A DNA stretch of 29,271 nt from positions 1 through 29,271 of the forward strand of contig DYIH01000001.1 in NCBI GenBank assembly GCA_020723785.1. The letters run 5' to 3'. How positions within the stretch are numbered: position 1 is the first letter of the stretch; each line of letters opens with the position of its first letter. The notes below the pieces were generated by a model. The model had not been told where the DNA came from and made no database searches. It saw only the letters and a program-made list of their open reading frames with translations. This document shows positions 386 through 26,178 of the stretch, one piece after another. The position numbers and the translations under genes are program-made. Source of the DNA: Thermaerobacter marianensis. Lineage in GTDB: Bacteria; Bacillota; Sulfobacillia; DYIH01.

Positions 386-1498
386 TTGCGCCCGGCCCCG
401 CTCTCACCCGCCCTCACCGGCCATACACTGGGAAAGACCGTCTACGCCGCCGATGGGAACCCCTTGCTGACAGCCGGAACCCGTCTCACCGCGCAGATGA
501 TCCAGACGCTCAGGAACCGTGGCTACGCCAGCGTGATCATCCGGAACGAGTTTTTCCCGGACCTGGAGACCGACGAAGCTGTCGGCGAAGAAACCAGGGT
601 GCGCACCGTCGCCCTCGCGAAGAAGGCCATGGAGGCCCTCACGGATGGCCGGCAGGTCAGCCTGACCCCGGTCAACCGGGCGGTCGACGAGCTGATCAAC
701 GCCCTGGAATGCCGCCCGCCGGGCCACGTGCACACCCTGTACTGGCAGCGGAGCATTGCGGAGGAGATCTATGCACACAGTGTAAACGTCTGTATCCTGT
801 CGCTGATCGTCGGCATCGGGCTCGGCTATTCCCGCTCGGACCTGCACAAGCTGGGGGTCGGCGCCCTGTTTCATGACGTGGGCAAACTTGGCTGCGGCGA
901 ACTGCATCGCAAGGCGACCCCCCTGACCCCCGAGGAGTGGGAACTCGCCAAGACCCACAGCCGCGCCGGCTATGACCTCCTGCACGACCGTGCCGAAATC
1001 AGCCTGCTCTCGGCCCACGTGGCCTGGCAACACCATGAACGGCTTGACGGCTCCGGTTACCCGCGGGGGCTGAAAGGGCCGGAGATCCACGAGTTCGCCC
1101 GCATCGCCGCCGTCGCCAACGCCTTCGACGCCCTGGTCGCCGACCGCCCGTACCGGAATGGCACGCCCCCGCACCTGGTGGTCGGACGACTCCAACCGCT
1201 GGCCGGCCGCCATCTGGATCCGAAGATGACGGGAATCCTCTTCAGCCGCCTCGAACGCTACCCCGTCGGCACCATCGTGACGCTGGTCACAGGGGAAGTC
1301 GCCGTCGTCACCGGGCAGAACGCCTGGCAACCAGAACGCCCGCGCGTCCGCGTCGTGGCCGATCGGGACCACCGGCTCATCTCGCCCTATGACCTGAACC
1401 TGGCGGAACACACTGCGGCGGCGGTCAGGGAGGTCCTCGGCGATTACCCGGCCCGCGTCAGGGAACACCTGGCCGACGGCTCCCGCGGCACCGTTTGA
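386..1498 (+). CDS. HD-GYP domain protein (putative cyclic dinucleotide phosphodiesterase)
   Basis: Motifs YAHSVNV, LFHDVGK, KTHSRAG, QHHERLDGSGYPRGL. Start set at TTG 386, in frame with ORF 8..1498, after the RBS-like AAAGGGGG. N-terminus LGKTVYAADGNPLLTAGTRLT is typical of Firmicute HD-GYP proteins. Confidence 0.88.
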   Translation: MRPAPLSPALTGHTLGKTVYAADGNPLLTAGTRLTAQMIQTLRNRGYASVIIRNEFFPDLETDEAVGEETRVRTVALAKKAMEALTDGRQVSLTPVNRAVDELINALECRPPGHVHTLYWQRSIAEEIYAHSVNVCILSLIVGIGLGYSRSDLHKLGVGALFHDVGKLGCGELHRKATPLTPEEWELAKTHSRAGYDLLHDRAEISLLSAHVAWQHHERLDGSGYPRGLKGPEIHEFARIAAVANAFDALVADRPYRNGTPPHLVVGRLQPLAGRHLDPKMTGILFSRLERYPVGTIVTLVTGEVAVVTGQNAWQPERPRVRVVADRDHRLISPYDLNLAEHTAAAVREVLGDYPARVREHLADGSRGTV

Positions 1499-1526
1499 GA
1501 CCGGCGCGTTCCTGCAGCGATCGATG

Positions 1527-3095
1527 TCAATGACGGAAGTGGCGGCGGCCGGTGAAGAGCATGATCAGGCCCCGCTCGTCCGCCACACGGATCGACTCCT
1601 CGTCGCGCACCGACCCGCCGGGTTGGACGACGGCCCGGATGCCGGCCTCGGCGGCCGCCTCCACCGTGTCGGCGAAGGGGAAGAAGGCGTCCGACGCCAG
1701 GTACGCGCCCCGCGCCCTCTCCCCCGCCTGGCGCAGGGCGATGCGGGCGGCGTCCACCCGGTTGGTCTGCCCCGCCCCGATGCCCAGGGTCTGCCTCCCT
1801 GCCGCCACCACGATGGCGTTGGACTTGACGTGCTTGACGACCTTCCAAGCAAAGAGCAGTTCGAGGAGGTCATCCTCGGTCGGCCGTGCTCTCGTCGCGC
1901 AGTGCCACTCGGCCGGCGACGCCCCCGGCGCATCGGACTCCTGCAGAAGGAGGCCGCCGTCGACGCGGCGCAATTCGAAGGGCCGCGGCGGGCACTCGTT
2001 CGGCACCCCGCCGGCGCCGCCCGGCAGCGGCACTCGCAGGAGCCGCAGGTTCTTCCTGGCCACCAGCATCTCCCGGGCCTCCGGGGTGAACTCCGGAGCG
2101 ATGATCACTTCCAGGAAGACGTCCGCCAGCGCGTGGGCCGTCTGGCCGTCAAGGGGCCGGTTGAAGGCCAGGATGCCGCCGAAGATGGACACCGGGTCGG
2201 CCGCGTAAGCCTTGCCGTAGGCCTTCACCAGTGTCTCGTCGAGACCGACGCCGCAGGGGTTGGCGTGCTTGACGGCGACGCAGGCCGGCTCGGCGAACTC
2301 CCGCACCAGCGCCCAGGCCGCCTGGGCGTCGTTTAGGTTGTTGTACGACAGCTCCTTGCCCTGCAGCTGCTCGGCCGACGCCAGGGTCGATCCCGCCGGC
2401 AAAGGGTCGCGGTAAAAGGCCGCCCGCTGGTGGGGGTTCTCCCCGTAGCGCAGCGGGGCCACCTTCTCGAAGGCCAGGGTCAGCTCTCGGGGGAAATCCA
2501 GCAGGCCGGCGCCGGCGCGGGCGCCCAGGTATTCGCCGATCAGGGCGTCGTAGAACGCGGTGTGCTGGAACGCCTCCACCGCCAGAGCCAGGCGCACCGC
2601 CTCGTCCAGGTCGCCGCCGGCCCGCAGGGCGCTGAGGACGAACGCGTACCGCTCCGGGTTGACGACGACGATCACGTCCCGGTGGTTCTTGGCCGCCGAA
2701 CGGATCATCGCCGGACCGCCGATGTCGATGTTTTCGATGGCCTCCTCCAGCCTCACGCCGGGCTTGCTCACGGTGGCACGGAAGGGATAGAGGTTGACGG
2801 CCACCAGGTCGATGGGCATGATGCCGTGTTCGGCCATCTGGCGCCGGTGCCGGGGCAGGTCCCGGCGGGCCAGGATGCCGCCGTGGACGAGCGGGTGCAG
2901 GGTCTTGACGCGCCCGTCCAGGATCTCCGGGAACCCGGTCACCTGGTCCACGGGCGTCACTACGACCCCCGCCTCCTGCAGGACGGCAGCCGTCCCCCCG
3001 GTGGAGACGATCTCCACACCCAGTTCCGCCAGGCCGCGGGCGAACTCGACGATGCCTTGCTTATCGGAAACGCTGAGGAGTGCCCGTTTGATCAT
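1527..3095 (-). CDS. purH: Bifunctional AICAR transformylase/IMP cyclohydrolase
   Basis: [46 protein letters not shown] and SDAFFPF motifs. Confidence 0.98.
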
Positions 3096-3110
3096 CCGAG
3101 CAACCGCCCT

Positions 3111-3779
3111 TCACTTGATGTAAACGCGCCGCCCCTGCACCTCGACCCGCCCCTCGGCTATGAGTCGGATGGCCTCCGGGTAGAGGCGGTGCTCCTGCTC
3201 CAGGATGCGCGCCGCCAGGCTGTCCTCGTCGTCGTCCTCCAGCACCGGCACCGCCGCCTGCAGGATGATCGGGCCGCTGTCCAGCCCCTCGTCCACGAAG
3301 TGGACGGTGCAGCCGGCCACCTTGACACCGTATTCCAGGGCCTGGCGCTGGGCGTGCAGCCCGGGGAAGGCGGGCAGCAGGGACGGGTGGATGTGGACGA
3401 TCCGGCCGGGGAAGGCGTCGAGGAAGGCCGGGCCGAGGATGCGCATGTACCCGGCCAGCACGACCAGTTGGACGGCATGGGCGTTGAGGCGCTCGGCCAG
3501 GGCGCGGTCGAAGGCCTCCCGGCCGGCGTGGGCCTGCGGGTCGACGAATTCCGCCGCGACCCCCGCCTGCCGCGCCCGCTCCAGGGCCTTGGCGTCCGCC
3601 TTGTCGCTGAGGACAGCGGCCACCTCGGCCGGCAGCCGGCCCGCGGCGATGGCCTCCAGGATGGCCTGCAGGTTGCTACCCCGGCCCGAGGCCAGGACGC
3701 CCAGGCGGAGTCGCCCGCCGCCGCCCGCCGCGGCCGCCGCGCGGGCGGTGGCGGCCGCGCCTTCAGTCCGAGTAGACAA
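3111..3779 (-). CDS. purN: Phosphoribosylglycinamide formyltransferase
   Basis: [50 protein letters not shown] start overlaps the purM 3' end. Ala/Gly-rich N-terminal extension; exact start uncertain. Confidence 0.95.
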
Positions 3780-4830
3780 CCTTGCGCTCGCCCCCCAGGA
3801 CCTCGCCGACGATCCAGGCCTCCTGCTCCATCTCCCGCAGGCGCCGGACGGCCCGGTCGGCGGCGTCGCCGGGCACGATCAACACCAGGCCCAGCCCCAT
3901 GTTGAAGGTCCGGCGCATCTCCGCCTCGTCGATCCCGCCCCCCAGGCGCCGCGCCGTATCGCGGATAAAGCCGAAAACGGGCGGCTCGCGCCAGGCGCCG
4001 GGCCGCAGAAGGGCGGCGGTCCCCTCCGGAAGCACGCGGGGGATGTTCCCCGTCAGCCCGCCGCCGGTGATGTGGGCCATGCCCCTGACGGGCAGTCCCT
4101 CCTCCAGCAGGGCGAGGACCGGTTTGACGTAGATCCGCGTCGGCTCCAGCAGTTCCTCGCCCAACACGCGGCCGAACTCCGGCACATGCTGGTCCAGGGG
4201 CAGCCGGGCCTCCTCCAGAAGCAGTCGGCGCACCAGGGAATAGCCGTTGGAGTGCAGCCCCGACGAGGCCAGGCCGACGATGGCGTCGCCCGGAACGATA
4301 TTCCTGCCGTCGATGACCCGCTCCCGGTCGACGGCGCCGACGGCGAAGCCCGCCAAGTCGTATTCGCCGGCCGGGTAGAATCCGGGCATCTCCGCCGTCT
4401 CGCCCCCCAGCAGGGCGCAACCGGCCCGGGCGCAGCCCTCGGCCACGCCCTTGACGATGTCGGCCACTTGGTAGGGCTCCAGCTTGCCGGCGGCCAGGTA
4501 GTCGAGGAAAAAGAGGGGCTCGGCCCCCTGGACGAGGACGTCGTTGACGCTCATCGCCACGCAGTCGATACCGACCGTGTCGTGGAGGTCCAGGGCGAAG
4601 GCGACCTTCAGCTTGGTCCCCACACCGTCGGCACCGGCCACCAGCACGGGCTGCCGGTACCTGTCGACCCGCAGGGCGAAGAGCCCCCCGAACCCGCCCA
4701 GGTCGGTCAGCACCTCGGGACGGAAGGTGCGGCGCACGTGCTGCTTCATCAGTTCCACGGCCTGCTCACCGGCGGCCACGTCCACTCCGGCGCCCCGGTA
4801 CGTCCACCGGGGCTCGTCTCCCCGTTCCAA
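3763..4830 (-). CDS. purM: Phosphoribosylformylglycinamidine cyclo-ligase (AIR synthetase)
   Basis: [55 protein letters not shown]. Start set at TTG 4830 with GGGGTGA 7 nt upstream. Confidence 0.97.
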
Positions 4831-4866
4831 GCCGTAATCACCCCGCAGGGAAGGTCCACAAGGGCT

Positions 4867-4872
4867 ATTGTA
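4867..4872 (-). promoter_or_regulatory. Candidate -10 element (TACAAT) upstream of purM
   Basis: TACAAT lies in the 67-nt nosY-purM gap; no recognisable -35 at 17 nt. Confidence 0.3.
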
Positions 4873-4897
4873 CAAGAAACGGGGGCGGGGGTGTAGG

Positions 4898-5710
4898 CTA
4901 TTCAGGCCGCCGCCAGAGCCGGAGGGCCGCGGCGTAAAACACCGCGCCCCACCCGGCCAGGGCGGGCAGAAGCGCGGCCCAGACCGGGGAGGAGCGTTCC
5001 AGGGCGGCGCCGGCGAAAGGGTTCGGGTCCACGGCTGCCAGGGCTCCTGTGGCCACGAGGGCCACGGCCCGTCCCGCCTCGACGGGGTTGGCGGCCAGCA
5101 GCACCAGCACCGCCCCCGAAGCCGCCCGCGGCGGCAGGGCCAGCCCCAGCCCGACGGCCATCAGGTCGTAGATCAGGGAGGCGAAGACCCAGACGGCCAG
5201 GCCGGCCAGCAACGCCGCCGGCCGCCGGCGCAACCACGCCGCGCACAGGGCGCCGAGCGCCGCGGCGTCGGCGCCGACGATCGTTCCGACGGCCCATAGG
5301 GCCGGAAGCGCCCGCCACGCCTCCTGGAAGGACAACAGTAAACCGGCGCCCGCCAGCCCCAGAGCGAGGCCGCCGGAGACGACGAGCCCTGCCGCGGTTA
5401 CCTTGGCACACAGGACGGCCCCGTGCCGGAAGGCAGGGGCCATCAGGTACCAGCCTGCACCCTCCGCGGTCAGCGACGAGACGCCCTGGACCACGCCCGT
5501 GAGCGCCGCCAGGTACACGACGGCGAGGCTGAGGCCAAGCAGCACCCTGGCCCCGCCGGCGGGGGTGGGGCCGGCCACCCCGTTCTCCAGGAAGGCCAGC
5601 CCGGCGGCGCAGAGGAAAAGCGTCGACGCCAGCGCCGGCAGGGCCGGCGACCTGCGGAGCTGGAGCAATTCGAGTGTGAGTGCGGAACGGAAGGCCGCCG
5701 CGAAAAACAT
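4898..5710 (-). CDS. nosY: ABC-2 type permease of the N2O reductase maturation system
   Basis: Multi-TM hydrophobic protein, strong RBS (GGAGGAGG), directly after the nosF-like ATPase in the nos cluster. Confidence 0.8.
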
Positions 5711-5725
5711 GGCCTCCTCCCCCTT

Positions 5726-6382
5726 TCATTGCGCTATGACGCCATCACGCAGCGACAACAGGCGGTCGGCCACGTCCCTGAACATGCCCGGCTGGTGGGT
5801 GGCCACCAGCACCACCTTCCCTCGGGCCCTCCATTCACGGATGAGCCCCACCGCCCCCCGGAGCGCCCCCGCGTCGAGGCTGTCCAGCGGTTCGTCCAAG
5901 AGGAGCACGTCCGGATCGGCGAGGTGGAGCAGGGCCAGGCCCAGCCGGCGGACCATGCCCCCCGACCACCCCCCTACCGGAAACGGGAGGTGTTCCTCCA
6001 GCCCCAGCAGGCCGGCCGCCGCCCTGACGCGCTCCGGGCCGTCTCCTGTCAGGCGGGACGAGGCGGTGGGGGATGAGGCGACCGCCACCGCGGCGAGCAA
6101 TTCCCCGCCCCGCAGGGCCGGCGGAAAGGCAGGCTGCTGGCTGAGATAACCGACCGCCCCGGGGATCGACACCTCCCCCGCGTGGGGGCGCAACCGGCCG
6201 GCGATCAGACGCAGGAGGGTGGTTTTCCCCGCTCCGTTCGGCCCGCAGACCAGGACGACCTCCCCCGGCGCCACGTCGAGGGAGATGTCCCGCAGCACGC
6301 TCCTCCCGTCGAAACCGCGGCGGACGCCACGCAAACGGACGGCGCCCGCCGGCGGATCAAACGGATCAACGAGGGTGGACAT
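5726..6382 (-). CDS. nosF: ABC ATP-binding protein
   Basis: Walker A GPNGAGKTT, signature WSGGMVRR, Walker B LLLDEP, H-loop VATH; located between nosD and the permease. Confidence 0.85.
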   Translation of the reverse strand: MSTLVDPFDPPAGAVRLRGVRRGFDGRSVLRDISLDVAPGEVVLVCGPNGAGKTTLLRLIAGRLRPHAGEVSIPGAVGYLSQQPAFPPALRGGELLAAVAVASSPTASSRLTGDGPERVRAAAGLLGLEEHLPFPVGGWSGGMVRRLGLALLHLADPDVLLLDEPLDSLDAGALRGAVGLIREWRARGKVVLVATHQPGMFRDVADRLLSLRDGVIAQ

Positions 6383-7769
6383 GGCCGAGCCCCCCTCCCA
6401 CGCCGCCCTTGGACCAGCCGGGATCGGCCCCGCAGCGGCCGGCCTGGGCCGCTTCCGCGCGCTCCAGGACCAGGGCGCGCCCGAGCCAATCGGGCGGGCC
6501 GGCTGCGGGAGCCGGGTCCACCGCCGCCGGGAGCCGGAGCACGCGCTCCAGCCGCTCGAGGAGCCACACGGCCGGGCTCACGGCCAGGAGCGCCCCGGCG
6601 GGGTACGATCCCGCGATGTAGGCCGTCACGCTGAGGGCGCGATGCGGCGGCGCCCCGCCCTGCCCCCACCGCGGACCGCGAGCGGCGGCCCGGTCCCAGT
6701 AGTTGCCGGGCATTACCACGTCGGGGCCGCCCCGTTCCAGCCAGACGTCCTGCGTGTTCCCCACGAAGGCGTTGCCGGCGATGCGGCTGTCGCCGGAGTT
6801 GCCCGCCAGGTAGAGCCCCACCCTGTTCCGGGTGAGGAGGTTGCCCGTGATCCCGGAGCGGTTGGCCCCGTCCAGGCCGAAACCGCGCTGCCACCCGGCC
6901 AGGATATTGTCCCGGACGGTGGAGTCGTCGGCGTCCTTGAGCAGCAGCCCGTAACCGCGCGGGTCCCCGTCGCCCACGAACACGTTGTCCCGCACCGCAA
7001 TGCCGTGGGAGAGCATCACGCCCGCACCCACGAGGCCCGGCCCGGCGCGGTTGCCGGCGATGGTATTGGCGCCGGAATTCATGACGTGCAGGGCGATGCG
7101 GTGCTCGCGGATAACGTTGCCGCGCACCACGTTCCCCGTCGCGTAGTCGAGGTATATCCCGTCGCGCGCCCGCCGGACGGCGTTGCCCTCGACGATCCCC
7201 CGGTGGGCGTCGAAGATGTGGATGCCGTCCCCCCTGTCCTCCATCCCGGCGGCTGCCAGGCCGGTGATGGAATTGCCTCGGATGACGAAGTACCGTGCCT
7301 GCTCCACATAGATGCCGTGGAGATTTTCCCTCAGGACGTTGGCTTCCACCCTCACCCCGTCGGCCCTGACCCGGATGCCGGCGGCGTCGGTCTCCAGGCG
7401 CCTCCCGCTCCCCTCCACCGTCAGCCCTTCTACGGACGCTCCGGCGGCGGTGACGACGATGACGTCGCCCTTGCCGTCGCCGCGGATGACGGCGCCGGGC
7501 TCGCCGACCAGCCGCACGCGGCGGACCAGGACCAGCGGCCCGTGGTACACGCCGCGACCCAACCGCACCACGTCGCCGGGCGCGGCCTCGCGCAGCGCCC
7601 GCTCCAGCAGGCGCCCACCGCCCCCGTCCGGCCGCACCTCCAGCACCCTCGCCGCCGCCGGGGTCACCGGCCCAAGCAACAGGGGAAACGCGCATAGAGC
7701 AGCCGCGAAGAAAACCGCGGCGCGGCCCCCGCCGGTCAGCCGCGGCACGACCAGCACCGCACGAATCAT
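6366..7769 (-). CDS. nosD: NosD-type periplasmic beta-helix (CASH repeat) maturation protein
   Basis: N-terminal signal, GVYHGPLVL, IRGDGKGDVI, NLHGIY, DRGDGIHI, RDGIY, GNYWD. The ATG at 7769 overlaps the nosB stop (ATGA). Confidence 0.88.
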   Translation of the reverse strand: MIRAVLVVPRLTGGGRAAVFFAAALCAFPLLLGPVTPAAARVLEVRPDGGGGRLLERALREAAPGDVVRLGRGVYHGPLVLVRRVRLVGEPGAVIRGDGKGDVIVVTAAGASVEGLTVEGSGRRLETDAAGIRVRADGVRVEANVLRENLHGIYVEQARYFVIRGNSITGLAAAGMEDRGDGIHIFDAHRGIVEGNAVRRARDGIYLDYATGNVVRGNVIREHRIALHVMNSGANTIAGNRAGPGLVGAGVMLSHGIAVRDNVFVGDGDPRGYGLLLKDADDSTVRDNILAGWQRGFGLDGANRSGITGNLLTRNRVGLYLAGNSGDSRIAGNAFVGNTQDVWLERGGPDVVMPGNYWDRAAARGPRWGQGGAPPHRALSVTAYIAGSYPAGALLAVSPAVWLLERLERVLRLPAAVDPAPAAGPPDWLGRALVLERAEAAQAGRCGADPGWSKGGVGGGLGHVHPR

Positions 7770-8353
7770 TCGTACCGCGGCCATCGCCACACCACCCATG
7801 CCATCGCCGCCAGGGCGAGCAGCGCCAGCCAGCCCCCCGGTTCCAGAACGGAGGTGGTGACGAAGTTGTAGAGCCGGTTCGATCCCAGGAGGGGCGGCGT
7901 GAAGGGCTTCACCCGGAGCGGCGCCTGCGGATCCAGGTCATGCCCGTAAACATAGAGCCAGCGGTAGAGGTCGACGGCGCCGGCCGCCAGGGCCAGACCC
8001 GTGACACCGGCCGCCAGCGCCCCCAGCCGGCGCCGGCCGGCCAGCCCCGCCGCCAGGGCCAGGGCGGCCAGGGCGACGAAGGCGGGGCGCAGCCACCGGA
8101 ACTCCGGCACCTCCGCGGTTTCCAACGGTAACGGCTTCATCCCGATGTAGTGGTTCAGCGTGTTTATGATCGGGATATCGCCCGAAAGGCCCCCGGCCGA
8201 CACCGTCACCCGCAGCCCCTCCGGGTATTGGGGCGCCACGATCCGCATGCTCCACAGCGGCAGGTGGCCGGCCGCCAACAGCGCCGCCGCGGCCAGGAAG
8301 AAGGCGGCGCGGCGGCCGGCGCCCTTCCGGACCTGCTGCGCCACCGAACTCAT
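7766..8353 (-). CDS. nosB: NosB-type membrane protein of clade II nos clusters
   Basis: PLWSMRIVAPQYPEGL, INTLNHYIGMK, WLYVYGHDLDPQAP and PPLLGSNRLYNF motifs with about four hydrophobic segments. ATG overlaps the cytochrome c stop. Confidence 0.85.
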   Translation of the reverse strand: MSSVAQQVRKGAGRRAAFFLAAAALLAAGHLPLWSMRIVAPQYPEGLRVTVSAGGLSGDIPIINTLNHYIGMKPLPLETAEVPEFRWLRPAFVALAALALAAGLAGRRRLGALAAGVTGLALAAGAVDLYRWLYVYGHDLDPQAPLRVKPFTPPLLGSNRLYNFVTTSVLEPGGWLALLALAAMAWVVWRWPRYE

Positions 8354-8745
8354 TTCAGCGTCTTCAGGTAGGCCACCAGGTCGGCCAGATCGCGGTCCGT
8401 CAGACCGGGGTTAGAAGGCATGGTCCCCCCCGTGCGTCCCACGCCGCCGGAGCGGATCCACGCCTTGACGTTGTCGTCCGTGCGCGGTTTGCCGTTGGGC
8501 AGGGTGGTATCCCAGGCCATCACGCCCTTAAGCCCCGGGCAGACCAGCGTGTCGGAGCCGGTGCTGTGACAGCTCGAACACCCCGCCCGTTGAAAGACGT
8601 TGCTGCCCCGGGCGATATCGCCCGCAGCCTTGACGCCCGGCGGCCTGGCGGCCGGAGCCTTGCCCACCTTGGCGCAACCGGCCACCAGCAAGGCGGCCAG
8701 TGAGAGGCCCGCGAGCAACGTGCCCCACCTCGATGCCGACCTCAC
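8350..8745 (-). CDS. Lipoprotein monoheme cytochrome c (NosC-like)
   Basis: Lipobox LVAGC, heme motif CSSCH, distal Met in GTMP. GTG start overlaps the nosZ stop (GTGA). Confidence 0.88.
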   Translation of the reverse strand: MRSASRWGTLLAGLSLAALLVAGCAKVGKAPAARPPGVKAAGDIARGSNVFQRAGCSSCHSTGSDTLVCPGLKGVMAWDTTLPNGKPRTDDNVKAWIRSGGVGRTGGTMPSNPGLTDRDLADLVAYLKTLK

Positions 8746-10787
8746 CGGCCCTCACCCTCCGATCCCGGCATGCCGCCAGCCGGCCCCGGCGTGCCGCCAC
8801 CGGGCTGCGTACCGCCACCCGGCCCCGGCGTGCCGCCGCCGGGCAGCCCGCTCGAGCCGCCCCCGGGCGCGGCGCTTGAGCCAGCGCCGGCCGCCGCGCT
8901 TGAGCCGCCCGCTGTTCCCTTGGGCCGCACGAGCAGCCAGCCCTGCATCTCCTGGTGCAACGCGGAGCAGAAGTTCGTGCAATAGAAGGGGTAGACGCCC
9001 GGTTTGTCGGCCGTGAACTCCATGGTCTTCGTCTCGCCCGGCTGGATCTCCATGTTCAGGTCGTAGTTCAGGATGCCGAAGCCGTGGGTGATGTCCTGGT
9101 CGCGGTCGATGTTCGTCAGGTGGACGAAGACGCGGTCCCCCTGGTTGACCTCGATGCGATCGGGCACGAAGCGGGAGCGCACGGCGACACCGTAGACGTG
9201 CACCTCGTCGCCCCGCCGTTCCACACGGGCGTCGGCGGGCCGCCACACGGAGTTCTGGCGCTTCTCGTCCTTGTCGAAGACCACCGTGGTCTTGATCCTG
9301 TCCGCCCGGATGATCTGGCCGTAGTGGGGTTCGGGGTCGACCGGCGCGTCGTAGAGCAGGCGCATCCGCTGCCCGGAGATGTCGACGAGTTGCAGGCTCT
9401 CCGGATGGGAGGGTCCCACGGATAGGTACCTGTCCTTGGCCATCTTGTTCAGCGAGACGAGGTAGCGGCCCACCGGCGCGGCGGTGTCGCCCTCAGCCAC
9501 GGCGATGTGGCCCACGTTGTACTGCACGGGAATGCGGTCCACCACCTCCCAGGTTCCCAGCCGCCACTTGGCCACGGCGCTGTCCAGGAAGAGGGAGGTG
9601 TAGGCGAAACCCTTCCCGTCGAACTGGGTGTGCAGCGGCCCCAGCCCAACCGGCACCTCGGCGGCGCGGACGGCCTCGTACCGCACCACCGGCATACCCC
9701 TGGCCTCGCCGGTAAAGTCCTTTTTGGCGATCGCGCCGCGCAGCTTCTCGAAGTCGAATACGGTCACATGCGGGGCGAGCTTGCCGCTGGCCACGATGTA
9801 GCGGCCGTCCGGGGAAACGTCCACCCCGTGAGGGCTCTTGGCCACCGGTAACAGGTAGGCGATGCCCGGCACCTTCGACGGGTCGATGACTTTCGCCCCG
9901 TCGATGACCGTGTACCGGCCCTCGCGCGCCGCGCGTTCCGCGGCCCTCCAGTCGACGGCCACGATGTAGTCGCGGTCGCGCTTGGAGGCGTTGGCCTCCA
10001 GGTTGGAGGTGGCCTCCTCGGTGTTGTAGGTGGTCAGGAACAGCCAGCCGTCGCTCGGTCCCTTGCCGGCGTCCGACAGGTCATAGGACCACGGCGGGAG
10101 GAGGAGTTCCCAGGCCAGGCTCATCTCGCCCCGATCCTTGTCCACCTTGAGGGCCGCCATCACCCCGTAATAGCGCGAACCGAACTCCTCCAGCGGGGCA
10201 TAGGTGCCGCGCGGGATGGGCATGGCCAGGCGGGAGGGCGCGAAGACGTATTCCGTGTTGGGCGTGACGAAGACGGAACAGTGGGCCCCGGCGATGTTCG
10301 GCAGCGGGCCGACCATCTGGTGCACCCGGAAGGTGTGCAGGTCGATGGAGGCCAGCCGGCCGTTGGCCATGTCGCTCACGAACAGCCAGCGCCCGTCGTA
10401 CTTGCCGCCGGTCTCGCTCAGCGCCACGTGGTGCAGGTCGCCCCAGTGGAAGCCTCCGAGCATCTCGCGGCTCTCCTTCTCGAACCCCCATCCCGTGGCC
10501 GACTCCGGCGTGAAGACGGGGATGGTGCGGATGCGGCGCATGGAGGGGAGGCCGTAGACGAAGACGTTCCCGGAGTGGCCGCCGGAGGCGAACAGGTAGA
10601 ACTCGTCCAGCTTGCCCGAGGGGACGTAGGTCTGCAGCGCCGCCGCGCGCGTATCCGCCGGCCCCTGCGGCGGCAGGTCCGGCCTGGCCCGCGGCAGCCT
10701 GCCCCCCCTGATCACGAAGGCCACCAGCCCTATGAGCGCGACGGCGGCCACCGCCGCCAACAGGCGCGTCCTGCTGTCCCTGATCAA
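8742..10787 (-). CDS. nosZ: Sec-dependent (clade II) nitrous-oxide reductase
   Basis: Seven CuZ histidines (DLHH, GAH, PHG, GPLH, GHI, EPH), CuA ligands THGF and CTNFCSALHQEM, SGGHSG motif. No twin-arginine motif; hydrophobic N-terminal signal/anchor. TTG start with GAGAGG upstream. Confidence 0.96.
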   Translation of the reverse strand: MIRDSRTRLLAAVAAVALIGLVAFVIRGGRLPRARPDLPPQGPADTRAAALQTYVPSGKLDEFYLFASGGHSGNVFVYGLPSMRRIRTIPVFTPESATGWGFEKESREMLGGFHWGDLHHVALSETGGKYDGRWLFVSDMANGRLASIDLHTFRVHQMVGPLPNIAGAHCSVFVTPNTEYVFAPSRLAMPIPRGTYAPLEEFGSRYYGVMAALKVDKDRGEMSLAWELLLPPWSYDLSDAGKGPSDGWLFLTTYNTEEATSNLEANASKRDRDYIVAVDWRAAERAAREGRYTVIDGAKVIDPSKVPGIAYLLPVAKSPHGVDVSPDGRYIVASGKLAPHVTVFDFEKLRGAIAKKDFTGEARGMPVVRYEAVRAAEVPVGLGPLHTQFDGKGFAYTSLFLDSAVAKWRLGTWEVVDRIPVQYNVGHIAVAEGDTAAPVGRYLVSLNKMAKDRYLSVGPSHPESLQLVDISGQRMRLLYDAPVDPEPHYGQIIRADRIKTTVVFDKDEKRQNSVWRPADARVERRGDEVHVYGVAVRSRFVPDRIEVNQGDRVFVHLTNIDRDQDITHGFGILNYDLNMEIQPGETKTMEFTADKPGVYPFYCTNFCSALHQEMQGWLLVRPKGTAGGSSAAAGAGSSAAPGGGSSGLPGGGTPGPGGGTQPGGGTPGPAGGMPGSEGEGR
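8770..8910 (-). repeat. Imperfect tandem repeats encoding the Gly/Pro/Ser/Ala tail of NosZ
   Basis: ccggccccggcgtgccgcc at 8780 and 8819 (39-nt period); gcgcttgagcc at 8872 and 8896 (24-nt period). Confidence 0.8.
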
Positions 10788-11146
10788 GCTCTTTCATCCT
10801 CTCGCGTTGTTCTGACAACCGATAGCATTCCCCTCCCTTCGACCAACCTTGCGCCTGCCGCCGCTTCTCCGCGGGCCGTATGGCACCCGTGGTGCCGGGA
10901 ATCAATGGAATAAACAGCGCGGTGAGGGCCGGGGAGAAGACCGCCAGGACGGCCGCCCGGCAGTGGGGCGTCCGGGCAAGAAAGGCCCGCAGGTCGGAAA
11001 GCTTCCGCTCGCGGCCACCTGGAATAGCGTGTAGGATAGGACGGTGGAATCGGGCCAACTTTATATGATATAGGGGATTATTCTTCATGCTGATCGGTTT
11101 TCGTGGCATGCAATGAAAGCCGTTACTGCAGGAGGAAAAGGACGGC

Positions 11147-12400
11147 ATGAGTCGAATAGACCAACCGGATGCCACCGATGGCTCGAAACAGGTGAGGGCC
11201 ATTTCGACCGAGCGCAAAGGCAGGAGTCCCTTCTATCCAGGACAACCGGTGCCGGTTGAACTGTTCGTGGGACGGCAGGAGCAGGTCGACCGGATCATGA
11301 CCCGCGGCGTTGCCCAGGTCGCCGCCGGTAAGCCGGTGGCCGTCTTCGTCCAGGGCGAGTACGGTATCGGAAAAAGCTCGCTGGCTGGGTTCGTGCAATT
11401 CCTGGCGGAAAAAAAGTATAACCTTCATCCTCTCTACGTTCCACTGGGTACGGCGGAAAACCCGGACGACCTGGGGAAAGAGGTCCTCGAAACCACCCTC
11501 AAATCGGGTGCCTTCAACCCGACCAGGGCCGACAGGATTCGCACCTGGCTGAACAAGTATATCGAGAACGTGACCTTTTTCGGCGTCAGCATTCGCCTGG
11601 ACGCCATCAAACGGGACGCACCCCATATCGCCTCGGGCATGTTGCCCTTTCTCGCGGAGGTGTTCAACCGTCTCAACGATACCGGCGTAAAGGGGCTGTT
11701 CCTCGTCTTAGACGAAATCAACGGCATCGCCGCCGATCGTCGTTTCGCCTACCTGCTCAAATCCATCGTCGACGGCAACGCCATGTCCCCCAAGCCCATA
11801 CCGCTGCTCCTGATGCTCTGCGGCGTGGAGGAACGACGCCGCCAGATGATCCAACATCATCCCCCCCTGGACCGGATCTTCGACGTCATTGAGATCAGCG
11901 CCCTGTCCGCGGAGGAAATGAAAACGTTTTTCGAAAACGCTTTTCGGAGCGTGGACATCGAGGTCGAATCGGAGGCGATAGAGCTTTTAATAGAATGGTC
12001 AGCGGGATTGCCCAAGATCATGCACCTGGTGGGGGATGCCGCCTTCTGGCTGGATCGTGACGGCGTCATCTCCAAAGGGGACGCGCTCGCAGCCGTCATG
12101 GTGGCTGCCGAAGAGGTCGGCACCAAGTTCGTCGACCAACAGGTCTACAGGGCGTTGAAGAGTCGGGACTACCATGCCATCCTGCGGAAGCTGGGCAAGA
12201 TCAGCTTGAAGAGCAACTCATTCATGAAGTCCGAATTGGAAAAGGATCTCACGGATTCAGAGCGCAAAAAGCTCAACAACTTCCTCCAGCGAATGAAAAA
12301 GCTCAACGTGCTACGGTCCGGAGACAGCATGGGGGAGTATGAGTTCAACCTGCCGATGGTCCGGGCCTACATCTGGCTGCAGAGCCGGCGGGACGGGTAG
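11147..12400 (+). CDS. Stand-alone P-loop NTPase, STAND/AAA_16-like, with probable C-terminal winged helix
   Basis: SPFYPGQPV...FVGRQEQ N-terminal motif, Walker A GEYGIGKSS, Walker B LFLVLDE, GxP motif SAGLP, and a helical/basic C-terminus ending in a GEYEF hairpin. Confidence 0.8.
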   Translation: MSRIDQPDATDGSKQVRAISTERKGRSPFYPGQPVPVELFVGRQEQVDRIMTRGVAQVAAGKPVAVFVQGEYGIGKSSLAGFVQFLAEKKYNLHPLYVPLGTAENPDDLGKEVLETTLKSGAFNPTRADRIRTWLNKYIENVTFFGVSIRLDAIKRDAPHIASGMLPFLAEVFNRLNDTGVKGLFLVLDEINGIAADRRFAYLLKSIVDGNAMSPKPIPLLLMLCGVEERRRQMIQHHPPLDRIFDVIEISALSAEEMKTFFENAFRSVDIEVESEAIELLIEWSAGLPKIMHLVGDAAFWLDRDGVISKGDALAAVMVAAEEVGTKFVDQQVYRALKSRDYHAILRKLGKISLKSNSFMKSELEKDLTDSERKKLNNFLQRMKKLNVLRSGDSMGEYEFNLPMVRAYIWLQSRRDG

Positions 12401-12489
12401 GAAAACCCCGACGCCTGCGCCTTGGAGACTCAAGCGGTTGCGACATTGGGAAAGAGATCCTCGAAGCCACCCGCAAATCGGGATATGGG

Positions 12490-13101
12490 TTACGGCGCTA
12501 CCCCGACGAGAATCAGGGGCACGGCAGGGACGCCGCGCCCTTCGCGGATGAGGTTGTAAAGCTCGGCCTCGTAATAGCCTACTCCGGACGACATCTCCTG
12601 TTGAAGTTCCTTCATTGGTAGTATCTCCACGCCGACGTCGATCACGTCGCCCACGTAAAACGCCATGTGCTTCACAAAAAGATCATAGGCAACAAAGGGA
12701 TATTTCCCGAATTGGACCTCGACCGCCACACGTTCCTTTACGAAATCCGTCTGATTATAGGAGTATATGGGTGTCATCCCCGCGTTCTCTATTTCGGCTT
12801 TCTGCTGTGCGGCAGGTAGATGCATGGTCTTACGAATCAGCTGGACATCGGATGTTACCCAATAAGAGGTTCGCCGCTCCCCCCAACCGCGAGCAGCAAA
12901 CGCCTGTCGCAGTGCCCGATTCATTGCCACAGGAGAAAAGAAAACGCTGCCCTCGGTCCGTTTCTCCTTGGATACTTTCGTCTTGCAGGCGCTGGCATCA
13001 ACCGACGCTATACACGCTTCGATCTCGGTCCACAGATGTTTCTTGTGTACCAAAAGGAACTCAACACCGTTGAGGTGCGAATAGCATTCCACGATCTCCA
13101 T
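12490..13101 (-). CDS. Type II restriction endonuclease, BglII/BstYI family (BstYI-like; predicted RGATCY)
   Basis: 203 aa. YSHLNG, TKVSKEK, SYNQTDFVKERVAVEVQFGKY, DLFVKHMAFY and GRGVPAVPL match BstYI as I recall it, with D119/E128/Q130 at the BstYI catalytic positions. Specificity is inferred. Confidence 0.9.
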   Translation of the reverse strand: MEIVECYSHLNGVEFLLVHKKHLWTEIEACIASVDASACKTKVSKEKRTEGSVFFSPVAMNRALRQAFAARGWGERRTSYWVTSDVQLIRKTMHLPAAQQKAEIENAGMTPIYSYNQTDFVKERVAVEVQFGKYPFVAYDLFVKHMAFYVGDVIDVGVEILPMKELQQEMSSGVGYYEAELYNLIREGRGVPAVPLILVGVAP

Positions 13102-13144
13102 GATAAGCCCTCCCCGGCAGCAAAAAACAGCAATCGGGGCAACG

Positions 13145-14104
13145 TCACGGAATCATCTCCAACGATGGCCGGGAGATGGCGCGCCCGGCCGGTGGTTCAT
13201 AGATGGGTCGATCCATGGGGCGGGTCCGCAGGAGACCTGCGGCAGCCAGCCGCACCCGCTCCCCCGCAATTCTCACGTACTCCTCAACGATATCCGCCCC
13301 TGCCGCCTGGCGGCCGTGTTTCACCGCCGCCACCAACGTCGACCCCACACCCATGTAGGGATCCACCACCAGCTGGCCCCTCTCGGTCATGGAGAGCACC
13401 AACCGCTCCACCAGTTCAACGGGAAACTGACAGGGGTGAATGGTCTTCTCCACATGGTTATGCTTAACGTTTGGGATCATCCAGACGTCGCCCGGGTTCT
13501 TCCCCAGGGGGTTGCAGGAGAATTGCCCGGCCTTAGGCCCCTTGAAATACTTCTTGCCCGGATACTTCTGAGGTACTCTGACAGGGTCGAGGTCAAAAAC
13601 ATAATCATCGGACTTGGTGAACCACAGGATCGTTTCATAGCGTCCCGAAAAACGCTTGGAACAATGCAGACCGTGTTCGAAATGCCAGACGATGCGATTA
13701 CGCAGTTTCAAGCCGTGTTCCTTAAAAACAGGGTATAGAACCACGTCAAGAGGGACGATCTCGCCATCGGGAGCGACGTAGTTCCCCACCTGCCAGCAGA
13801 GACTCCCCCGCCGGTGCAGGATGCGTACACATTCGACAATGACAGAGGCCTGTTCCTCGACATAAATTTCGAGGGCCTTCCTTTTCTCATACTTCTTCCC
13901 AATGTTGTAAGGGGGTGAGGTCACGATGAGATGGGCAGCCTCGTCCGGAATCGTTTTCAACAGACCCTTGCAATCGCCATGAAACAAGGTCACGTCGTCC
14001 CGAAGTTCCCGCGCGACGGCCAAGTCATCGAGTTTCCCCTGATGCAACCGCCGACCCTCCCAAGGTTCCATCGAAGTCGGTTTGATCAGTTCGCCATCGC
14101 ACAC
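13145..14104 (-). CDS. DNA methyltransferase, beta class, N4-cytosine type (cognate of the endonuclease)
   Basis: Catalytic motif IV TSPPY precedes HPCQFP and motif I VVDPYMGVGST (beta order). GTG start with AGGAG 5 nt upstream; alternative ATG at 14071. Confidence 0.92.
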   Translation of the reverse strand: MCDGELIKPTSMEPWEGRRLHQGKLDDLAVARELRDDVTLFHGDCKGLLKTIPDEAAHLIVTSPPYNIGKKYEKRKALEIYVEEQASVIVECVRILHRRGSLCWQVGNYVAPDGEIVPLDVVLYPVFKEHGLKLRNRIVWHFEHGLHCSKRFSGRYETILWFTKSDDYVFDLDPVRVPQKYPGKKYFKGPKAGQFSCNPLGKNPGDVWMIPNVKHNHVEKTIHPCQFPVELVERLVLSMTERGQLVVDPYMGVGSTLVAAVKHGRQAAGADIVEEYVRIAGERVRLAAAGLLRTRPMDRPIYEPPAGRAISRPSLEMIP

Positions 14105-14115
14105 GTGTTCTCCTG

Positions 14116-25512: not shown

Positions 25513-26037
25513 TCAATGGCCCCGGAAGCAGTCAGGATCCATGTGCCGCGGCCCCTGGCAATTCAGCTCGGCCGGCCCCCATAGGCTTTTGATGTATTCC
25601 ACCACGTCCCGAATCTGCTCCCGCGTCAGATCCGTCTTCCAGGCCTTCATCCTTGGGTTCCGCGGGGAACCGTCGGCGATGAAGTTGGCGAGGTCCTCGT
25701 CCGTGTGGTGCCAGGCGTGCGCCGAACCATCCAGGGGCGGCGCCGGGAATCGCCCCTGTTCATCCGGGGCAACGGGGTTGGCCGGGTTTTCGCCGACGCC
25801 GTCCCGACCGTGGCAGCCGGCGCACCTGGCCTCGTAGATCACCTTGCCCCTGGCGACCCGGGCGTCGTCCAGCCTGATCGGCGGCTGCTCCGCCGCCGGG
25901 GGCGTCCCGCGCTCCGAGGCAGCGGGCGCAGCTTTTCCGCAACCGGTGACCAGCATCAGGACGGCGCCGAGCACAACCACGACACCCAAGGCTAAAGGGA
26001 TCATACCCGCTTTGCCATGCCGGCCTTTTCCCGACAC
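25513..26037 (-). CDS. Lipoprotein monoheme cytochrome c
   Basis: Lipobox LVTGC, CAGCH, PPLDGSAHAWHH, RMKAW. Start set at GTG 26037 after GGAGG (ATG 26004 alternative). Confidence 0.85.
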   Translation of the reverse strand: MSGKGRHGKAGMIPLALGVVVVLGAVLMLVTGCGKAAPAASERGTPPAAEQPPIRLDDARVARGKVIYEARCAGCHGRDGVGENPANPVAPDEQGRFPAPPLDGSAHAWHHTDEDLANFIADGSPRNPRMKAWKTDLTREQIRDVVEYIKSLWGPAELNCQGPRHMDPDCFRGH

Positions 26038-26065
26038 CTGTCCCCCGCCTCCCGACTTGGCCAAC

Positions 26066-26101
26066 CTGTTCATGAACAGCCGAAACAAATGCATTATACC
26101 A
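26066..26101 (-). promoter_or_regulatory. Extended -10 promoter with a downstream 14-bp perfect palindrome (candidate operator)
   Basis: TGGTATAAT at 26101-26093; CTGTTCATGAACAG at 26066-26079, between the promoter and the RBS. Confidence 0.6.
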
Positions 26102-26178
26102 TGGAGCCCATACGCTAACTTCTTCCTCCTATTGATCGCGTTTTGGAAAGAACCCATTTTCTCCTGCAGGCCGGAAGG

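Follow-up and report, generated by a model that had tools for sequence, protein, structure and literature searches.

A clade II nitrous-oxide reductase gene cluster between purF and purM in an uncultured Bacillota-like genome

Six adjoining minus-strand genes, with exact bounds at positions 4898 and 10787 of a 29,271-nucleotide stretch of DNA (the window, analysed over its whole length), encode the nitrous-oxide (N2O) reductase NosZ, a cytochrome c and the accessory proteins NosB, NosD, NosF and NosY, and raise the question of whether so small a set can support N2O respiration and in what kind of organism it would do so. The initial annotation, made from the letters of the window alone, had seen here a minimal cluster of a possibly non-denitrifying N2O sink, relying on a stripped-down accessory set and on a membrane-tethered cytochrome as electron donor. 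The six-gene cluster is confirmed by family models, homology and fold matches. The reading that we favour, with a probability of about 0.72, is that of a functional clade II nos operon of the Gram-positive type, horizontally acquired and sited between purF and purM in an uncultured, high-GC, Bacillota-like subsurface host that is likelier to be a denitrifier. The source genome is a metagenome-assembled bin of 1.93 Mb in 348 contigs (85% complete, 3.6% contaminated), in which the window lies on contig C202.

The nos genes and their products

The genes, read from nosZ onwards, and the region upstream of them are as follows.

Positions 8742-10787, minus strand: nosZ, 681 aa, clade II Sec-type nitrous-oxide reductase (TIGR04246).
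Positions 8350-8745, minus strand: NosC-like monoheme class I cytochrome c, predicted lipoprotein, 131 aa (PF00034, 52.8 bits).
Positions 7766-8353, minus strand: nosB, 195 aa, clade II-specific membrane protein with about four transmembrane helices (homology, hydropathy).
Positions 6366-7769 or 6366-7799, minus strand: nosD, periplasmic beta-helix maturation protein (TIGR04247, PF05048).
Positions 5726-6382, minus strand: nosF, 218 aa, short-form ATP-binding cassette (ABC) ATPase (PF00005).
Positions 4898-5710, minus strand: nosY, 270 aa, divergent ABC permease (alignment, fold match).
Positions 10788-10939, minus strand: nosZ upstream region, about 150 nt common to the source and to a 98.5%-identical strain described below.

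NosZ is identified as a clade II enzyme, as had been expected, by its score of 893.7 bits against the profile hidden Markov model (HMM) of Sec-dependent enzymes, TIGR04246 (cut-off 625); it reaches 476.4 bits against the model of the twin-arginine translocation (TAT) type, TIGR04244 (cut-off 625), and 209 bits against the clade III model (cut-off 700), and its residues 48-621 align to solved NosZ structures with an E-value of 1e-115. Alignment to 1QNI and to relatives recovers all seven CuZ histidines (H119, H120, H169, H320, H386, H427 and H488) as well as all CuA ligands (H568, C603, C607, H611 and M614), with N605 occupying the position where a backbone carbonyl ligates CuA. The N-terminus, MIRDSRTRLLAAV, reads R-T-R without an RR pair, and only two open in-frame codons lie 5′ of the start; together with the alignment, this confirms what the initial annotation had said of the copper ligands and of the missing twin-arginine motif. 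Hydropathy places a hydrophobic helix at residues 8-26, and because this stretch contains neither a cysteine nor an A-x-A site, we take it for a signal anchor, not for a signal that is cleaved off, so that NosZ appears to be membrane-anchored.

The catalytic core (approximately residues 50-622) is followed by a 58-residue Gly/Ser/Pro-rich tail, encoded at about 8745-8918 by imperfect 21- and 24-nt tandem repeats, which is 10 residues shorter in the 98.5%-identical strain and missing in all relatives examined, these ending right after CuA. An exact-sequence look-up of NosZ returned no record. Phylogenetically, the protein falls inside a supported clade (98) of Bacillota-type clade II enzymes that includes those of Carboxydochorda, Desulfitobacterium, Planifilum, Schinkia, Microaerobacter and metagenome-assembled genomes (MAGs), the neighbouring clade being acidobacterial; the tree contained no clade I sequence, and the separation from clade I is therefore that given by the HMM scores.

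The GTG start of the cytochrome gene overlaps the nosZ stop codon. Its product carries the heme motif CSSCH, a probable axial Met in GGTMP and a predicted lipobox, L-V-A-G-C, read by eye; it matches a solved class I cytochrome c (8GTH) with an E-value of 2.6e-22 and is 49% identical to the cytochrome c encoded after a sister nosZ at another locus (L078). Genes for a Rieske protein, cytochrome b6 and subunit IV are found on contig C29 of the source genome; a ResB match was marginal (22 bits) and too weak to assign a cytochrome maturation system. Prediction of a complex between NosZ (residues 45-625) and the cytochrome (residues 36-131) returned a score of 0.00, which speaks neither for nor against binding. 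The lipoprotein cytochrome is the most plausible immediate electron donor of NosZ; in this respect the proposal of a membrane-tethered donor is supported, the nosZ-cytochrome pair being kept in the sister lineage also.

NosB, which no Pfam or NCBIfam model matches, is homologous to the open reading frame (ORF) found immediately 3′ of nosZ at more than 30 clade II loci (phmmer, E-values of 1e-24 to 1e-40) of Acidobacteriota, Ignavibacteriota, Gemmatimonadota, Zixibacteria and Bacillota; here the cytochrome gene lies between the two, so that nosB sits one gene from nosZ. For nosD, translation probably begins with the ATG at 7769, giving a protein of 467 aa that scores marginally above the cut-off of TIGR04247 (301.1 bits against 300), reaches 124 bits against PF05048 and matches Pseudomonas stutzeri NosD (7O0Y_A) over residues 79-430 (E 5e-35). 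NosF aligns to P. stutzeri NosF (7O0Y_B, 308 aa) over residues 2-192 of the latter and ends at the equivalent of about residue 200; the nucleotide-binding core is present, the C-terminal part of some 110 residues is not, and the protein is 42% identical to the 222-aa NosF of another locus (L073). NosY matches no family model at E ≤ 0.001 and no Protein Data Bank (PDB) sequence. It aligns end to end with the PF12679 NosY proteins of relatives at 21-26% identity, keeping the ANPV motif, and the 11 best Foldseek matches in the PDB to its AlphaFold2 model (predicted template modelling score 0.80) are all P. stutzeri NosY, with template modelling scores of 0.70-0.78. The ORF finder also listed a frame at 4902-5729, which overlaps nosY, is rich in Arg and Gly and is spurious.

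Stop and start codons mostly overlap, as initially described: four of the five nos junctions do so (GTGA; ATGA; ATGA, at the nosD start at 7769; and a 17-nt overlap), the fifth being a 15-nt gap with a strong Shine-Dalgarno sequence. Upstream, a perfect palindrome, GGCACCACGGGTGCC (GGCAC-N5-GTGCC), lies at 10882-10896, about 95 nt 5′ of the nosZ start; it occurs once in the window, is conserved in the sister strain and may be a candidate binding site of a regulator. The same motif was considered as a sigma-54 (-24/-12-like) promoter, a reading that was dropped because no sigma-54 gene was found in the source genome and because sigma-54-regulated relatives lack the motif. No regulator gene adjoins the cluster, and at its other end nosY and purM are spaced by 67 nt without a terminator.

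Taken together, these features show a nos operon that is intact and probably functional. On the gene identities given above, and with each step modelled on the known families, NosZ would be exported unfolded by Sec and would remain tethered to the outside of the membrane through its N-terminal helix, left uncleaved, while electrons would pass from menaquinol through a complex of the Rieske/cytochrome b6 type to the monoheme, lipid-anchored cytochrome c, and from there by way of CuA to CuZ, where N2O would be reduced to N2. The CuZ copper-sulfide site would be built by NosD, the short NosF and NosY, with NosB, and the copper would come from general chaperones in place of NosL, the source genome encoding at least five Sco/SenC proteins and two PCuAC proteins.

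Position in the pur operon and origin

The window has a G+C content of about 68-70%, and ORF calling guided by G+C at third codon positions (GC3), combined with family scans, resolves it into an array that is on the minus strand apart from the TerC and ATPase genes.

First block, minus strand: guaA, acyl-CoA ligase, cytochrome c, TerC (plus strand), BacA, AI-2E transporter, purE, purB, purC, purQ, purL and purF.
Second block, 11000-14000, 56% G+C: DNA methylase, BglII-like endonuclease and AAA/STAND-like ATPase (plus strand).
Third block, minus strand: nosZ, cytochrome c, nosB, nosD, nosF and nosY, then purM, purN and purH.

A gene for an HD-GYP protein is also among the window ORFs. The cytochrome c gene of the first block (25513-26157, 214 aa, PF13442/PF00034) is unrelated to the nos-linked one, to which its product is 25% identical. 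Family scans of the window ORFs found no nosL, nosR, nosG/H, nir or nor, in agreement with the initial description. PurH matches that carry names are from Bacillota only, at 60-65% identity.

The pur operon is thus interrupted after purF, where 9.3 kb (window 4831-14115) comprising the methylase, the endonuclease, the ATPase and the nos cluster separate this gene from purM. Three relatives with 76-78% identical PurH (L074, L075 and L076) have the order purE-B-C-S-Q-L-F, a single short ORF (encoding 80 aa or a LysM protein) and purM-N-H-D, and because they hold only this ORF at the junction, the 9.3-kb stretch is read as an insertion. In one of them (L076), the 1265-aa product of purL (1417-5214) matches both an intein model (PF14890) and LAGLIDADG and is thus an intein-interrupted PurL. 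NosZ was found in none of 40 genomes of the same order or class, 35 of which are at least 90% complete. A search at the island for an integrase, a transposase and flanking direct or inverted repeats recovered none, the repeats that did turn up being GC-rich chance matches.

The 98.5%-identical strain (L068), assembled independently in a second subsurface study, carries all six genes in identical order, flanked by purM at one end and by the methylase and endonuclease genes at the other. Relative to the window, it lacks 1183 bp at 10940-12122 (most of the ATPase gene and its upstream sequence) and 485 bp at 12558-13042 inside the endonuclease gene; the nos genes are intact despite these deletions, and the defence genes of the island seem to be undergoing decay. 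Because relatives have an empty purF-purM site, NosZ is missing from all 40 genomes and the protein is nested in a Bacillota-type clade, the cluster is best read from these comparisons as horizontally acquired, together with the lower-GC restriction-modification/ATPase island.

Denitrification genes elsewhere and rival readings

The description of the host as possibly non-denitrifying is unsupported, because the same genome holds narGHJI and a native cd1-family gene. Searching that genome as a whole bears out one part of the initial expectation, in that nosL, nirK and a recognised nitric-oxide (NO) reductase (NOR) were not found, and speaks against another, in that a gene combining cytochrome c and heme d1 domains was (contig C180, 36-1676; PF02239, 297 bits). 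C180 also carries the only enolase gene of the genome, whose product is 75, 72, 71 and 68% identical to those of four relatives of the same order and less so to more distant ones, which shows that the contig is native. The cd1-family protein is itself predicted to be a lipoprotein (LALAGC), and its heme c domain is preceded by a linker rich in Lys, Glu, Ala and Pro. As for nitrate reduction, contig C43 bears narH (643 bits, above its cut-off), narJ, narI and one end of narG, and the compositionally typical contig C39 bears a second narG end. The two narG 3′ ends (C39 9198-9614 and C43 8531-8947), each at a contig end, are about 90% identical, which suggests either that nar is present twice or that the bin merges two strains; a run of N lies just downstream of the narG end on C39.

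Two further, divergent nosZ homologues occur in the bin: a complete copy on contig C104 and, on C348, a fragment that is 75% identical to it. The C104 homologue scores 505 bits, below both curated cut-offs, and is 40% identical to the NosZ of the cluster; one of its CuZ histidine columns is aligned to leucine, which may be an alignment error. The gene order at C104 243-5454 is a 367-aa cupredoxin-domain protein, the divergent nosZ, a nosB-like gene and, at the contig end, a 549-aa ORF that matches no family and is possibly nosD-like by position only. Members of this NosZ family are mainly Chloroflexota proteins annotated as hypothetical, and C104 and C348 are either native or mis-binned, with neither option preferred.

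Several results weigh against the favoured reading of a functional operon in a probable denitrifier. A scan of 4600-11300 found no sigma-70 consensus promoter, with terminator matches at chance level, and there were no RNA runs containing the stretch. The absence of nosL, inferred from the lack of a PF05573 match, is that of an 85%-complete bin, and so is that of a recognised NO reductase, the models used not covering NORs related to B-family oxidases. The best solved relative of the cd1 protein is NirN (6RTD, 293 bits), ahead of NirS (236 bits), so the gene encodes either NirS or NirN, a paralogue that acts in d1 maturation for NirS. In composition, C43, the contig with narHJI, is an outlier (98th percentile). 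Finally, non-synonymous to synonymous changes between the two strains number 8:22 in nosZ, the cytochrome gene and nosB and 17:9 in nosD, nosF and nosY, a difference that is nominally significant (Fisher p ~0.01) and comes from 56 substitutions in one strain pair.

Some of these points would suit a non-denitrifying organism that respires exogenous N2O and makes none, a reading that we consider possible, if unlikely. In its favour, no nirK was found, the only candidate being a multicopper oxidase on C171 (87 bits) that was rejected as CopA/laccase-like, and no canonical NO reductase, the COX1 matches being an A-type oxidase and a fragment on C143 that was rejected as a NOR since it resembles B-type oxidases; 15 Bacillota genomes with nos only have moreover been surveyed (PMC11388526). 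The compositional oddity of C43 and a NirN identity of the cd1 protein would fit as well. Yet a narG end is found on C39 too, the cd1 gene adjoins the sole enolase gene on a contig that is native, and 15% of the genome is missing. NirN is not known to have a role apart from serving NirS, so that even a NirN gene would count against this alternative. The host is thus more likely a partial or complete denitrifier, with nar and a cd1 nitrite-reductase system, than a pure consumer of N2O.

Both other alternatives concern the cluster itself. A decaying or non-productive acquisition, in which NosZ is poorly metallated for want of NosL and of a full-length NosF and the genes drift, is in our judgement improbable: the ratio of non-synonymous to synonymous polymorphism (pN/pS) between the two strains is indeed 1.55 for nosD, 0.8 for nosF and 0.43 for nosY, but nosZ, the cytochrome gene and nosB have values of 0.12-0.16, which indicate purifying selection, and in both strains none of the six frames is broken and the start/stop coupling is kept. 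While nosL was not found in the source genome and the C-terminal third of the NosF known from structures has no counterpart here, a short NosF without nosL is also seen in other Bacillota clusters (L073, L079 and the 672-bp nosF3 of Bacillus azotoformans), and nosL is reported to be absent from thermophilic Bacillota classed as complete denitrifiers (PMC11388526). The partial deletion of the neighbouring endonuclease and ATPase genes in the sister strain would also suit decay, and, the counts being small, nosD, nosF and nosY may be under relaxed constraint on maturation. An artefact of assembly or binning, by which nos genes of another organism were mis-joined to the pur operon, might be suspected in a bin so fragmented and slightly contaminated, from a contig that contains 10 N; it is scarcely credible, for the independent assembly from the other study shows methylase, endonuclease, nosZ to nosY and purM in the same order, and mis-assembly is excluded because the joins are the same. 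The tetranucleotide make-up of the contig is, besides, the most typical of its size class, and the nos genes, with a GC3 of 0.86-0.93, agree in this respect with the pur genes. The reading of a functional, acquired operon in a likelier denitrifier is therefore retained.

Comparison with known nos clusters

Contrary to what the initial annotation had implied, the layout is not new. Heylen & Keltjens 2012 (PMC3475470) described a Gram-positive "atypical" cluster, nosCZ-ORF-nosDYF-ORF, in Geobacillus thermodenitrificans, Desulfitobacterium, Desulfotomaculum and B. azotoformans, in which NosC is a predicted outward-facing lipoprotein cytochrome c, proposed as electron carrier, and the ORF encodes a four-transmembrane-helix protein now called NosB; one of the B. 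azotoformans clusters has a 672-bp nosF (nosF3) and no nosL. Thermophilic endospore-forming Bacillota MAGs (PMC11388526, 2024) likewise combine cytochrome c, clade II nosZ, nosB and nosDYF, most of these genomes being without nosL, and Sec export and an adjacent nosB are hallmarks of clade II (PMC11096178). The same six families, with a short NosF, make up the clusters of G. thermodenitrificans NG80-2 and B. azotoformans cluster 3 (nosC-nosZ-nosB-nosD-nosY-nosF), the latter also lacking nosL, nosR, nosX and nosGH (PMC3475470). Unlike in those species, the cytochrome gene here lies 3′ rather than 5′ of nosZ, nosF precedes nosY, and NosZ has a Gly/Ser/Pro tail and neither a cleavable nor a lipoprotein signal; the host is a member of a deep, high-GC lineage, whereas the Geobacillus and Bacillus systems belong to Bacillales. 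In the MAG clusters, too, the cytochrome c gene precedes nosZ, and the genomes carry a recognised qNOR, bNOR or sNOR, none of which was recognised here (PMC11388526). A stripped-down set with a tethered cytochrome is accordingly a known Gram-positive solution: "minimal" holds against the nearest relatives, which have an activator, two cupredoxins, an Fer4_5 protein and usually nosL in addition, and is the norm among published Gram-positive clusters.

Organisms with clade II NosZ are the leading candidates for a biological N2O sink, which is why it matters which accessory genes are needed. The present cluster contributes a case from a deep, Bacillota-like lineage of the subsurface, no other sampled member of which has nosZ, supports the view of cytochrome c, NosZ, NosB and NosDFY as a sufficient, mobile unit, and offers a compact cassette for expression; as the layout was already published, the conceptual gain is small. 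It also cautions against deducing a "non-denitrifier" from one window when nar and cd1 genes are present elsewhere in the genome; the host is probably not a pure N2O sink, in that it also carries genes for nitrate and nitrite respiration. Particular to this locus are the cytochrome gene after nosZ, nosF before nosY, the NosZ tail, the apparent membrane anchor, the pur insertion and the lack of an adjacent regulator. Read jointly, they could describe a self-sufficient, transferable N2O-respiration cassette, without NosL, a dedicated quinol dehydrogenase or a regulator of its own, that landed in the pur operon and whose NosZ docks through its tail, a combination that is speculative and, as a whole, unlikely. 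Were it true, the cassette would plug into any host with a bc-type complex and general copper chaperones, purMNH may be read through from the nos promoter in this lineage, and the tail, which varies in length by strain and ends where the cytochrome gene begins, might tether or dock the lipoprotein cytochrome.

The nearest relatives of NosZ (65-70% identity) are those of Carboxydochorda subterranea (68%) and of MAGs labelled 'Armatimonadota' and Clostridia (70%), within the same subclade. Their clusters share the core order with the window, running nosZ, nosB, nosD and nosF, followed by nosL and nosY in either order; they differ in having an upstream module of PAS/sigma-54 activator, cupredoxin, Fer4_5 membrane protein and cupredoxin that is missing here, usually one or two nosL and a long NosF, no cytochrome c, and no location in a pur operon. 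Intermediate arrangements exist: L073 has the upstream module, but a 222-aa short NosF and no nosL, and L079 has nosZ-nosB-nosD-short nosF-nosY followed by a cupredoxin gene, again without nosL. At L078, which comes from the same sample as the second strain and encodes the sister NosZ (68%), nosZ is followed by the cytochrome c gene with a stop/start overlap and no maturation genes nearby, while the Desulfitobacterium locus has Rieske/cytochrome b genes upstream and a nosL. Judging from these gene neighbourhoods, the nosZ-cytochrome pair defines a small subclade, and a short NosF without nosL (L073, L079, B. azotoformans nosF3) recurs.

Two more distant systems can be set beside the cluster. 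Wolinella succinogenes is reported (Hein et al. 2017) to have likewise a Sec-type NosZ, an adjoining nosB, cytochrome c genes downstream and a dependence on a Rieske/cytochrome bc complex; compared with that system, the present locus has no heme domain fused to NosZ, no NosGH quinol dehydrogenase and a single lipoprotein cytochrome in place of cNosZ and NosC1/C2. To the structurally characterized NosDFY(L) of P. stutzeri (7O0Y, 7ZNQ and 7QBA) the likeness extends to the whole beta-helix of NosD, the fold of NosY and the nucleotide-binding core of NosF, the differences here being the lack of a NosL partner, a NosF shorter by about 110 C-terminal residues and a clade II NosZ in place of a Tat-exported clade I enzyme. 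Across the loci compared, the interchangeable part of such clusters is the redox partner module, which is a cytochrome c, a cupredoxin or a bc complex.

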